DNA of 64,000 nucleotides, from NCBI GenBank assembly GCA_000004695.1, contig CM000150.2:3776001-3840000 (forward strand), read 5' to 3'. The DNA comes from Dictyostelium discoideum (lineage: Eukaryota). Each line of letters opens with the position of its first letter. Within the stretch, counting starts at the first letter, position 1. The translations under genes were made by a program, and so were the position numbers. The notes beneath the pieces were generated by a model that was not told the DNA's origin, searched no databases, and saw only the letters and a list, made by a program, of their open reading frames with translations. Shown piece after piece: positions 11,682-21,645 of the stretch.

Positions 11682-12230
11682 ATGGAATTATTAGTTGGTG
11701 GTACAATTTTAGGTGCATTAACATATGCATATAGTTCATTAAAAAGAACTATTCCAGAAGGTGCTCATGCATGTTCACCATTTTATCCAGAGAAATATGT
11801 TGGAAAATGGTATGAAATCGCTCGTTTAGATTTTTATTATGAAAGAGATATGAATAATGTTAGTGCAGAGTATACATTAAATAAAGATGGTACAATTAGT
11901 GTTATTAATAGTGGTTATAATTATGTTGAAAAGAAGAGAGAATCAGTAAATGGAAAGGCTTTATTTGTACATGGTTCAGATGAAGCAATGTTAAAAGTTT
12001 CCTTTTTTGGTCCATTTTATGCTGGTTACAATGTTATTGCAATTGATCCTGATTATAAATATGCATTGGTTGCCGGTAGAAGTTTAGATTATTTATGGAT
12101 ACTCTCAAGAGAAACTTCAATTCCAGATCATATTAAAAAACAATATTTAGAATTAGCTGAATCAATTGGTTATAATACTTCAAAATTAATTTGGACTGAA
12201 CATGATAATATTAATAATAAAAAGGATTAA
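11682..12230 (+). CDS. bacterial-type lipocalin (Blc/ApoD-like)
   Basis: A 182-aa ORF with the lipocalin SCR1 motif GKWYEIARL and the Blc-like following strand pattern (ISVINSGYN...GKA...VSFFGPFYAGYNVIAIDPDYKYALVAGRSLDYLWILSR). Confidence 0.75.
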   Translation: MELLVGGTILGALTYAYSSLKRTIPEGAHACSPFYPEKYVGKWYEIARLDFYYERDMNNVSAEYTLNKDGTISVINSGYNYVEKKRESVNGKALFVHGSDEAMLKVSFFGPFYAGYNVIAIDPDYKYALVAGRSLDYLWILSRETSIPDHIKKQYLELAESIGYNTSKLIWTEHDNINNKKD

Positions 12231-12646: not shown

Positions 12647-13004
12647 TTTTATTACCTTTTTTTTTTTTTCTATTTTTTTTTTTTTTTGTTTTATTACCTT
12701 TTTTTTTTTTTCTATTTTTTTTTTTTTTTCTATTTTTATTAATCAATTCCTATTTTTATTTATTTTTTAACACGCAGTTTCTTTCGGTTGGATTTTTTTT
12801 TTTTTTTAAAAAAAAATAAAAATAAAAAAAAAACCAAAATAAAAAAAAAAGAAATCAAAAAAAATATTCACCACATTTTCACCACCACGCCCATAACACT
12901 TATAATAGTTTTGTAGTAATACATTGAATAACTTTTATTCTTTTTTTTAATTTTTTTTTTTTTTAATTTTTTAATTTTTTTATTTATTTATTTTTAATAT
13001 AAAA

Positions 13005-13143
13005 ATGGTAAACACAAGAGATTTTCTTCCTAAAACCACACATTACTTAAAAGTTCCGATTATTGGTTTAAATGCAATTCTCTGGGTAAGTTTATATTAA
13101 TTTATATTAAAATAAAATAAAAATAAATACTAATACTTTTTCA

Positions 13144-13219
<76 letters not shown>

Positions 13220-14079
13220 TTTTAATTATTTATTATAATTATTTATAGTTACTTGGGTAAATTTTATATTTTTTGATAGATTTTTTTTTTTTTTTTCAAT
13301 TAATTTATTATTAACTAAATTTTTAAATATATATATATATATATATATTTTTAATTTAGACTTGTTTTAATAGTTGTTGGATCAGTTTGTATAAGTTTTT
13401 TTTCAAATTTTAAAGAGTTTACCAAAGAATCAGGATATAAGAATGCATTATCGAATCTTACAACCAGTGCACCAACTGGTGTTTTAGTTATTGGTATATT
13501 TTTCATTTTATTAACACTTGTTGGTTGCTTTGTAGCATATAAAGAGAAATTGGTTGGTTTGGTTTTATATACAATGTTAATGCTAATTTTATTGGTTGTA
13601 TTAATTGGTATTGGTGGTAAAGCTTTAACATTAGATAAAGAGGATGCTGTATCTATTATTGGTACATCATGGGTACAAATTTCAAACTCTTTAAAGAATT
13701 CCACAATTACAAAATTGGAAGATTTTTTAGAATGTTGTTGTTGGTCCGAATCTTATTCCAATCAAACCTATAAAGACCTTTGTCCAAAAGATGATGATGG
13801 AAATATTAAATATGAAGATACCTATTGCGAAGGTATCTTTACTAAACAAGTTTCAAGTAAATTAGTTTTAGGTATTTATCATTCTATTTTTATTACTATT
13901 ATTGTGTTGAATATTTTTTTATTATTTTTTTTTTTGAAAATACTAATTTATTTAATATTTTAGTTGGTATTGCTGGTGTAGTTATTGGATGTATTGAATT
14001 TGTTGCAATGGCATTATCACTCTTTTTAATCATTCGTATTTGTCGTTCTCCACGTAGTAGAGCCTATGATCAATATTAA
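13005..14079 (+). CDS. tetraspanin paralog 1; predicted exons 13005..13085, 13249..13256 (8-nt micro-exon), 13360..13871, 13964..14079
   Basis: Exon 1 encodes MVNTRDFLPKTTHYLKVPIIGLNAILW|gtaagt. Frame-2 ORF 13550..13963 plus upstream open frame encode four TM segments and a large extracellular loop with ECCCW and CPKD cysteine motifs. The phase only closes if TTACTTGG (13249..13256, flanked by tatttatag| and |gtaaat) is included, which restores W-LLG-LVLIVVG as in the paralogs. The last exon encodes ...IAGVVIGCIEFVAMALSLFLIIRICRSPRSRAYDQY*. Confidence 0.65.
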
Positions 14080-14952
14080 TAAAAGTAAAACTATTTATTT
14101 TTCTATTTTACAAATTGTCATCTCCAATTTTTATGCTTGGTTGGTAAAAAAAAAAAAAAAAAATAAACAAAATAAAAAGTTATTGTAAACACAAAAAAAA
14201 AAAAAAACTAAAAAAAAAAAAAAAAAAAAAAAAAAAAGTGATTTCACCAGGGATTATTAGGAAAAATTTAATTTTAATTTTTATATTTTTTTTTTTGGGT
14301 TTACAATAACTTTTTAAAATAAATTCTTAGGTAATATATTTTTTTTTTTTATAATTATTAACATATGTTATCTTCTTTTTTATTTTTTATTTTTTAATTA
14401 TTTTCAATAGTGATGTTTATAAATAAACAAAGAAATAATGGGAAACTCTAACAAGCCTTTGAGTGATTAGATTTTCAATCATTTCCTCTTCCATAATCCA
14501 ATGTATTTATATATTAATATCTAAAATTGGAGCTTGGTTATTTAACCCACCTCTTCTATTAAAAATTATTTAAATAAAGTTAAAACTCATTAATTTTATT
14601 TTATTTTATTTTGAAAAAAAAAAAAAAAAAAAAAAAAAAAACATTACCCTGTCCTTGCATTTGTTTTAATTTTTAAAATAAATATAGAAGGGAATAAAAT
14701 ATTGTTATTATTATTAATTAAACTAAATAAATAATTAATTTTTTAGTTTCCAAAAAATTTATTTGTTTTTCAAATTTTTTTTTTTAAAAAAAAAAAAAAT
14801 AAAAATAAAAAAAAATAAAAATTAAAAGATAGGGATATTGATTTTTTTTCCTCTCAGTTGGTGTGGTGATATTAAATAATAAAATTCAATGTGTAGTAGA
14901 AAGAAAGATATTTTATATATTGTTAAAGAATGTAATTATAATTTATTTTGTT

Positions 14953-19203: not shown

Positions 19204-20160
19204 ATGGTAGATACATCAAATCTTTTACCACAAACACCAAGACTTTTAAAAGTCCCATTAATTATTTTAAATATTATCCTTTGGGTATGTATTTTAATTT
19301 TTTTTTTTTTTTTTTTTTAAAACAAAAACTAAAAATAAAAAAAAAAAAAAAGATAATTGCAATATTAAAAAATAAATAAATAAATAAAAAAAATAAAATA
19401 AAAAAATATATTTTAATTAATAATATCTTAAAAAAAAAAAAAAAAAAATCTTTAGATTCTTGGTTTAGTTTTAGTTATTGTTGGTGGTATTTGTGTTAGC
19501 TTTTTATCAAATTTCAAAGATTTCACAAAAGCCAGTGATGCTAAATCAGCTCTTTCAAATCTTACAACCAGTATTCCAGCTGGTGTTTTAGTTATTGGTA
19601 TCCTCTTTGTAATTTTCACTGTTGTTGGTTGTTTCGTTGCGTAAGTATACCAATAATAATAAATTATTATTATTATTATTATTATTTATTTTTATTAACA
19701 TTTTATAAAATAATATAGTTACAAAGAGAAATTAGTTGGTTTAGTAATCTATTGTGCAGTAATGTTAATTTTATTAGTTATTTTAATTGGTGTTGGTGGT
19801 AAAGCTATAACATTACACAATGATGATATCATTAATGAAGTTGGTGGTGCTTGGGAACATGTTGCCAATGGTACAAAGAATAGCACCCTCACTCGTCTCG
19901 AAAATTTCTTAAAATGTTGTAAATGGTCAAACGTCTCAATAGACTCTTCAGATTTATGTCCAAAAGATGGTGATAAAATTAAATATGAAGGTCACTATTG
20001 TGGTGAAGCTTTAAGTGACCAATTCAGTTCAAAAATCTATGCTGTTGGTGCTGCTGGTTTAGCCATTGGTATCATTGAACTCGTTGCCATCCTTTTCTCA
20101 TTATTCTTAATTATTCGTATTTGTCGTTCACCAAGAACTCGTTCATATGATCAATATTAA
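19204..20160 (+). CDS. tetraspanin paralog 2; exons 19204..19284, 19456..19640, 19719..20160
   Basis: MVDTSNLLPQTPRLLKVPLIILNIILW|gtatgt; tttag|ILGLVLVIVGGICVSF...VGCFVA with donor GC|gtaagt at 19641; aatatag|T joins in phase to YKEKLVGLVIYCAVMLILLVILIGVGGK... (ORF 19762..20160 with KCCKW and CPKD motifs, TM4 and the ...RICRSPRTRSYDQY* tail). Confidence 0.75.
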
Positions 20161-20606: not shown

Positions 20607-20891
20607 ATGGTAGAATATCTTCCTTCAACTCCACGTTATTTAAAAGGTATGATTATTATTATTTTATTTTTTTTGATTGTTTTTTTAATTGATTGTTTTT
20701 TTTTTTTTTTTTTTTTTTTTTAATCACCTTTTTCTATTTTATTCTACTAATTTAAGAAAAATTTTATAATTTACTAATTTATTCCAATTTATATATATAT
20801 GTATATATAAAGTTCCATTAATAATATTAAATGTCATTCTTTGGGTAAAGTTTTTCCTGTTTTTTTAACACCATCATACCAGGGGCAAAAA

Positions 20892-20930
<39 letters not shown>

Positions 20931-21645
20931 TTAAAGATTTTAATTTATGAATATAATAATAAATTTTATTATTATTAATTATTAATTATAAATTATTATT
21001 ATTATTATTATTATTATTATTTAGTTATTAGGATTAGTACTTGTTATTATTGGTGGAATTTGTGTTGGATTTTTTTCAAGATTTAAAGAGTTACAAGAAG
21101 TAGGAGGAGTTTCAGAATCAATAAAGAGTATATCGGTATCATTACCAGCTGGTGTATTAAGTATTGGTATATTCTTTATGGTATTAACAGTAGCAGGATG
21201 TATCGTAGCTTATAAAGAGAAAATGGTAGGATTGGTATTCTACACAATATTGATGTTGGTTTTATTAGTTGTTTTAATTGGTATTGGTGGTGAAGCATTA
21301 ACTTACCATAATGCTGATATCGGTATTGAAATCGAAGATAATTGGAAAAACATCTCATATTCAAATCAAAGTGTTGTAATTAAAAAATTGGAACAATTCT
21401 TTGAATGTTGTTGTTTTGATGAAAGTGATCTAAAATTAAATTGTACTGCATTATGTCCACAAGATGATCAAAAAAATATATTATATAATGGTACTTTTTG
21501 TTATGATGTAATATTTGGTGCTGTAAATTCGAAATTGTATTTAGTTGGTAGTGCTGGTGTTGCAATTGGTGTGATTGAATTGGTTTCATTAATGTTTGCT
21601 TTATTTTTAATTGTTAGATTATATAAATCAAATTCTTATAGATAA
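20607..21645 (+). CDS. tetraspanin paralog 3; exons 20607..20646, 20813..20844, 21025..21645
   Basis: ATG GTA GAA TAT CTT CCT TCA ACT CCA CGT TAT TTA AAA G|gtatga; ag|TT CCA TTA ATA ATA TTA AAT GTC ATT CTT TGG|gtaaag; ttatttag|TTA TTA GGA TTA GTA CTT GTT ATT ATT GGT GGA... continues into ORF 21178..21645 (ECCCF and CPQDD motifs, TM4). Confidence 0.7.

Follow-up and report, generated by a model that had tools for sequence, protein, structure and literature searches.

An 8-Nucleotide Coding Exon in the Tetraspanin Gene tspC of Dictyostelium discoideum

Introduction

Can a segment of only eight nucleotides, enclosed by two introns, be a genuine internal exon of a protein-coding gene? The question is raised by a tetraspanin gene in the window, by which we mean the whole 64,000-nt stretch of Dictyostelium discoideum DNA that was analysed. 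The window has a G+C content of about 21% and carries three tandem tetraspanin genes on its + strand, tspC, tspA, and tspD, all of which score far above the Pfam Tetraspanin threshold. In an earlier note, which was made from the letters of the DNA, an 8-nt micro-exon was predicted in the first of these genes, at 13249-13256. The reasoning was that exon 1 ends on a complete codon, that the following large exon is out of frame unless some bases are supplied before it, and that the conserved residues following a tryptophan in the two paralogs would be restored by exactly these eight nucleotides. The paralog motifs read as they were quoted there:

19204..20160, + strand: tspA, W-ILG-LVLVIVGG
20607..21645, + strand: tspD, W-LLG-LVLVIIGG

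Structure of the tspC Gene

The gene that the earlier note called paralog 1 is tspC (DDB_G0270986) of D. discoideum AX4, on chromosome 1. By exact protein look-up and homologue search, it occupies 13005-14079 on the + strand, and it is composed of the following parts:

13005..13085, + strand: exon 1, 81 nt, 27 codons from ATG to TGG, MVNTRDFLPKTTHYLKVPIIGLNAILW; joined to the micro-exon in the RNA-seq contig L010
13086..13248, + strand: intron 1, 163 nt, phase 0, GTAAGT...TTATAG, 96% A+T
13249..13256, + strand: micro-exon, 8 nt, TTACTTGG; Leu28, Leu29, and the first two bases of Gly30
13257..13359, + strand: intron 2, 103 nt, phase 2, GTAAAT...ATTTAG, 94% A+T; splits the 8 nt from the large exon
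13360..13871, + strand: exon 3, 512 nt; the remainder of transmembrane helix 1 (TM1), EC1, TM2, TM3, and the large extracellular loop
13872..13963, + strand: intron 3, 92 nt, phase 1, GTATTT...TTTTAG
13964..14079, + strand: coding part of exon 4; TM4 and the C-terminal tail, with the stop codon TAA at 14077-14079; the exon extends to 14139 in the RNA-seq contig

The letters agree with the prediction at each point. The last codon of exon 1 is complete, ...CTC TGG at 13085, and is followed by gtaagt. The large exon opens at 13360 with A CTT GTT TTA ATA GTT GTT GGA, and two bases are needed before it for the frame. The eight nucleotides at 13249-13256 are preceded by ataattatttatag and followed by gtaaatttta, and their flanks are canonical, with an AG acceptor (tatttatag|) on one side and a GT donor (|gtaaat) on the other. 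When 13005-13085, 13249-13256, 13360-13871, and 13964-14079 are joined, an open frame of 238 codons results, and translation of the join yields ...AILW-LLG-LVLIVVGS..., reproducing the W-LLG-LVLIVVGS that had been predicted. When the micro-exon is omitted, the translation shifts frame and meets a stop 17 codons later.

Directly upstream of tspC, at 11682-12230 on the + strand, lies an intron-less lipocalin gene (Lipocalin_2) of 182 amino acids, and the synteny of the two genes holds in D. citrinum, D. dimigraforme, and D. firmibasis.

The Micro-Exon in the mRNA and in Existing Annotation

The 238-residue product of the four-exon model is identical, residue for residue, to XP_646374.2, EAL72843.2, and UniProt TSPC_DICDI. 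Albers et al. (2016; PMC5012570) entered TspC as DDB_G0270986, with three introns, a mass of 26.3 kDa, and two slug ESTs. The same authors amplified the tspC ORF from AX2 amoeba and slug cDNA, cloned it, and sequenced it, and they found it "identical to the database entry" (PMC5012570). Since the computed mass of the 238-residue model is 26.33 kDa and its coding region has exactly three introns, the gene model of Albers et al. is the four-exon model described here.

A second line of evidence comes from the RNA-seq assembly contig Logan SRR24091722_1878 (L010, 971 nt), which contains an uninterrupted ORF of 717 nt. Both junctions of the micro-exon, 13085^13249 and 13256^13360, are present in it (...aattctctgg[TTACTTGG]acttgtttta...), and it matches the joined segments 12952-13085, 13249-13256, 13360-13871, and 13964-14139 with 0 mismatches over 830 nt. 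The earlier note had suggested a search for spliced reads across 13085/13249/13256/13360, and this contig supplies both of the junctions concerned. In place of the different cDNA junction or the silent locus that the note had considered as counter-evidence, there is a cDNA that matches the database entry and a gene that is transcribed.

One RNA-seq contig and bulk cDNA cloning could miss a minor skipped isoform; in every record found the micro-exon is part of the mRNA. We conclude that tspC has a true internal coding exon at 13249-13256 that is spliced into the mRNA, a reading against which nothing speaks, and we put its probability at about 0.93. The micro-exon is used exactly as had been proposed, to judge from the identity with XP_646374.2, the published cDNA, the junctions in L010, and the conservation in three other species that is described below.

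The prediction carried an implication of novelty, which does not hold: the exon is present in the public gene model already. It is part of the RefSeq, UniProt, and dictyBase model and of a published, sequenced cDNA, and it is not a discovery. Albers et al. (2016; PMC5012570) made no remark on the 8-nt exon itself, and our literature search found no paper on micro-exons in Dictyostelium. The GenBank and RefSeq proteins of tspC are at version 2 (EAL72843.2 and XP_646374.2), so the model must have been revised at some point.

It had also been said that such an exon is exceptional in a genome with very few introns. The genome is indeed intron-poor, but it is far from being nearly intron-free: according to PMC5173251, 69% of D. 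discoideum genes undergo splicing, and introns average 1.9 in number and 146 bp in length.

Beyond the coding region, L010 passes from 14139 to 14411 (TGCTTG|gttggt ... ttcaatag|TGATGT), which marks a GT-AG intron of 271 nt in the 3′UTR of tspC, at 14140-14410. This intron begins 60 nt past the stop codon (14077-14079), encloses a 92-nt A-rich tract (14146-14237), and lies outside the three-intron count of Albers et al. (2016).

Chance and Alternative Splice Paths

How easily could an 8-nt segment of this kind arise by accident? The interval between exon 1 and the large exon, 13086-13359, is 274 nt long and about 95% A+T, and it contains 4 AG and 4 GT dinucleotides in all. With the outer splice sites fixed, enumeration shows that 13249-13256 is the sole internal AG..GT segment that restores the frame. 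The interval was shuffled 200,000 times with its composition preserved. Some stop-free, frame-restoring segment turned up in 13% of the 200,000 shuffles and a stop-free AG..GT segment of 8 nt in 1.3%; an 8-nt segment encoding [LIVMF][LIVMF]G appeared in 0 of the 200,000. A chance origin of the tspC 8-nt exon is excluded.

If the eight nucleotides were no exon, exon 1 and the large exon would have to be joined in frame by a single intron with other GT/AG sites. Enumeration shows that ten stop-free joins of this type are possible on paper, and the best candidate combines a donor at 13090 (TAA|gtttat) with an acceptor at 13373 (tttaatag|TTG), giving ...ILWVIVGS.... However, all ten joins would cost TM1 or EC1 between 5 and 33 residues, among them the invariant [ILV]LG, and an exact look-up in a collection of about 15 billion proteins retrieved none of the ten products. 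Moreover, D. citrinum, D. dimigraforme, and D. firmibasis lack the AG at 13372-13373 and have AAT TGT there, and it is the micro-exon junctions that are found in the cDNA and in the RNA-seq contig. A single intron is therefore extremely improbable, and the joins that it would require are ruled out by the transcript evidence.

It is harder still to credit that tspC is a decaying, frameshifted pseudogene in which TTACTTGG is a chance motif that only resembles an exon. Nothing speaks for this beyond the oddness of an 8-nt exon. Against it, not one of the 200,000 shuffles reproduces the exon, the changes within the exon over four species are synonymous only, and tspC is transcribed. In addition, the available text of Albers et al. 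(PMC5012570) places TspC at the contractile vacuole and reports a defect of osmoregulation in TspC-minus cells. Shuffles, conservation, transcription, and the TspC-minus phenotype together refute the pseudogene.

Conservation Across Dictyostelium Species

Orthologues of tspC encoding 238 amino acids were found in D. citrinum, D. dimigraforme, and D. firmibasis, and in further strains of D. discoideum. The micro-exon and its two flanking introns compare as follows:

D. discoideum AX4 (window) and L008: micro-exon TTACTTGG; intron 1, 163 nt; intron 2, 103 nt
D. discoideum L009: micro-exon TTACTTGG; intron 1, 115 nt; intron 2, 96 nt
D. citrinum L003: micro-exon TTACTTGG; intron 1, 73 nt; intron 2, 95 nt
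D. citrinum L004: micro-exon TTACTTGG; intron 1, 70 nt; intron 2, 86 nt
D. dimigraforme L005: micro-exon TTGTTAGG; intron 1, 84 nt; intron 2, 91 nt
D. firmibasis L001: micro-exon TTACTCGG; intron 1, 98 nt; intron 2, 128 nt

All seven genomes retain the length of 8 nt, the coding of Leu-Leu-Gly, and the AG and GTAAAT on either side. The substitutions within the micro-exon are all synonymous (TTA/TTG; CTT/CTC/TTA), and the introns diverge freely in length and sequence, intron 1 spanning 70-163 nt and intron 2 spanning 86-128 nt. From this pattern of substitution, the micro-exon is evidently under purifying selection as coding sequence.

Intron 1 contains a simple repeat:

13146..13243, + strand: (TTA)n microsatellite inside tspC intron 1, with 24 perfect units at 13146-13217

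The repeat is polymorphic, with 24 units in AX4 and L008 and about 6 in D. discoideum L009, and it is absent from D. citrinum, D. dimigraforme, and D. firmibasis. The (TTA)n tract is outside the splicing signal. In AX4, it separates a conserved TACTAAT (13128-13134) from the acceptor of intron 1 by 115 nt.

What the Eight Nucleotides Encode

Leu28, Leu29, and the two bases of Gly30 that the micro-exon supplies are situated in the middle of transmembrane helix 1 of TspC. In all 19 of the family members collected (19/19), the W-[ILV]-L-G motif and the N-x6-G-x6-G spacing, represented in tspC by N23, G30, and G37, are invariant, and Gly30 is the central residue of this Asn-Gly-Gly heptad. The closest solved structure to TspC is that of human CD9 (6k4j, E = 8.7e-9), to which N23, W27, L28-L29-G30, and G37 of TspC align at N18, W22, L23-A24-G25, and G32. 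This TM1 heptad of conserved Asn and Gly has been described by Kovalenko et al. (2005; PMC1190194), who also found that CD9 aggregates when Gly25 or Gly32 is mutated. Since Gly30 aligns to CD9 Gly25, whose mutation causes CD9 to aggregate, the micro-exon holds part of a structurally critical codon. Its inclusion must accordingly be essentially error-free, as it encodes part of this critical TM1 glycine.

TspC matches the Pfam Tetraspanin family (PF00335) over residues 15-223 with 101.5 bits, the cut-off being 32.1. Its large loop contains ECCCW, with CCC in place of CCG, and two further Cys; the motif of TspC was classed as modified by Albers et al. (PMC5012570).

Origin of the Second Intron

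The two introns that enclose the micro-exon differ in their distribution. A phase-0 intron directly behind the Trp of TM1 occurs in tspA, a tspB-like gene, tspC, tspD, and four D. purpureum homologues. The intron 8 nt further on (+8, phase 2) is present in tspC only; it is absent from tspA, tspD, the tspB-like gene, and the four D. purpureum genes, and in these genes the [ILV]LG codons run without interruption into the sequence that follows.

Short exons of other kinds are found in two members of the family. The tspB-like gene, P0016 on L011, lies about 19 kb outside the window and has an exon of 19 nt, GTTCTTGGCTTGGTTTTAG, at L011 673-691, right after the conserved phase-0 intron. Its extra intron, 144 nt long, is at +19 in phase 1, and a model of 81 + 19 + remainder yields P0016 exactly. 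In tspD, exon 2 is only 32 nt long (20813-20844; TTCCATTAATAATATTAAATGTCATTCTTTGG) and lies between a phase-1 intron that is specific to tspD and the family-wide phase-0 intron; a model with three exons reproduces TSPD_DICDI (Q55CV4) exactly. The 19-nt exon of tspB shares with the tspC micro-exon the family, the position in TM1, and a start at the conserved phase-0 intron, but its extra intron differs in being at +19 and in phase 1. The 32-nt exon of tspD likewise shares the family and TM1, but it ends at the phase-0 intron, and its extra intron is upstream and in phase 1. The claim that an 8-nt exon is exceptional has then to be tempered: the exon is used, as claimed, but it has short counterparts of 19 nt in tspB and 32 nt in tspD. 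The extra introns of tspB, tspC, and tspD, as they differ in position and phase, are separate events.

It is most likely that the second intron was gained in tspC within the D. discoideum species group, 8 nt past the old intron. An origin by gain is favored on grounds of parsimony, as a single event would replace several losses, and also by a neighbor-joining tree in which D. purpureum 39101, which is without the +8 intron, is sister to the tspC clade; we hold it to be probable. Alternatively, the +8 intron may date back to the ancestor of the tspB/tspC group, or further, the other genes having lost it. Lineages poor in introns commonly lose them, which lends this some weight, as does the poorly resolved orthology of the D. 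purpureum genes: the placement of 39101 has a bootstrap of about 50%, and synteny gives the orthology no support, as no lipocalin gene was found within the flanks of 1.5-3 kb that were fetched for the four D. purpureum tetraspanin genes. On the other hand, loss would require several independent and exact events where one gain suffices, and the tspB intron, at +19 in phase 1 and not at +8 in phase 2, is a different intron. Loss seems to us the less likely explanation, though one to be kept in mind beside the gain that we prefer.

It is tempting to propose that the gain in tspC was recent and datable, following the split from D. purpureum, that an independent gain took place at +19 in tspB, and that the start of TM1 is a small hot spot of intron gain. 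We offer this composite picture tentatively, at somewhat less than even odds. The literature search on tetraspanin intron evolution, Dictyostelium included, returned nothing relevant.

The micro-exon shares the sequence ACTTG with the first bases of exon 3, and this was considered as a target-site duplication. It was dismissed as a coincidence because it is not kept in D. dimigraforme (TTGTTAGG) and because no residues are added relative to the paralogues.

Environmental homologues were also found, at 66-785 of L013 and at 66-785 of L014, in 1.7-kb contigs of a JGI soil metagenome. They are 41-42% identical to tspC and have an uninterrupted tetraspanin ORF, and the contigs carry, in the opposite orientation, a START-domain gene. 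These homologues may be genes of another amoebozoan that have no introns, or they may have been assembled from transcripts.

Splicing of the Micro-Exon

Since 8 is not a multiple of three and skipping leads to a stop 17 codons on, inclusion of the micro-exon is obligatory for a functional protein. How might so short an exon be spliced? Steric limits apply to the splicing of very short exons, and 3′ and 5′ splice-site complexes only 8 nt apart would hardly fit simultaneously. Because the complexes would overlap, the two introns are probably removed sequentially. Both flanking introns are short (163 and 103 nt) and rich in A+T (96% and 94%), and in each of them the donor is GTAA and the acceptor TAG. 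Short introns are generally recognized across the intron, that is, by intron definition (PMC2397502). Introns of D. discoideum being few and short (mean 146 bp; PMC5173251), each of the two could be defined alone. We suggest that each flanking intron is probably recognized across itself and that, under intron definition, the length of the exon would not need to be measured.

One internal element of intron 2 may take part in this process:

13309..13315, + strand: TATTAAC, candidate branch site in intron 2; 13-64 nt from the 3′ splice site across seven genomes

TATTAAC is the sole intron-internal heptamer that is kept in all seven genomes. It was located by pattern search, as a MAFFT alignment of the introns misplaced the motif. 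It is one base off the yeast consensus, TACTAAC, and at 13309-13315 it could plausibly serve intron 2 as its branch site.

Could the micro-exon also serve as a regulated cassette, some transcripts skipping it to produce a premature-stop mRNA and hence less TspC by unproductive splicing? Skipping does yield a stop 17 codons downstream, the tspC transcript has an intron in its 3′UTR, and exons of very small size are by nature difficult to include. Against regulated skipping, the exon is included in the sole assembled transcript and in the published cDNA, and errors of intron-definition splicing tend to produce intron retention and not exon skipping (PMC2397502). We regard such regulation as improbable, and the micro-exon appears to be constitutive.

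Significance and Comparison with Known Micro-Exons

The consequences for annotation are small, since the exon is in the public model and in a sequenced cDNA. It is nevertheless a case in which an 8-nt exon could be recovered from the raw sequence by reasoning from the frame and the paralogues. The point of interest lies in the sister genes, which have different extra introns 8 and 19 nt from a shared old intron. If the twin gains are true, they would amount to a natural test of an intron-definition spliceosome on exons of 8 and 19 nt in an intron-poor amoebozoan.

The tspC exon is an apparently constitutive, coding micro-exon of a length that is not a multiple of three, the term micro-exon being taken for a spliceosomal, internal exon of ≤15 nt. 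Among known systems, the micro-exons of plants (≤15 nt; PMC8831610) are likewise tiny, conserved, and needed for frame or function, according to the available part of that study, and they are easily missed, being often misannotated or absent in genome annotation. As described in the same part, however, plant micro-exons are conserved in 10 diverse species, whereas that of tspC has so far been seen in a single gene, within one group of closely related Dictyostelium species.

The 4-nt exon of human MPC1 provides a second parallel. In the accessible portion of its description (PMC9929638), it is constitutive, its length is not a multiple of three, and its inclusion is obligatory for the frame, as in tspC. 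The difference lies in the setting: the MPC1 exon is in a mammalian context with strong exon-definition elements, whereas the tspC exon is flanked by A+T-rich introns of about 100-160 nt, fitting intron definition. The neuronal micro-exons of animals (3-27 nt, dependent on SRRM3/4), so far as the available parts of the published accounts describe them, have their size class alone in common with the tspC exon. They are alternatively spliced, switch-like, neuron-specific cassettes, whereas the tspC exon is apparently constitutive, and skipping it destroys the frame.
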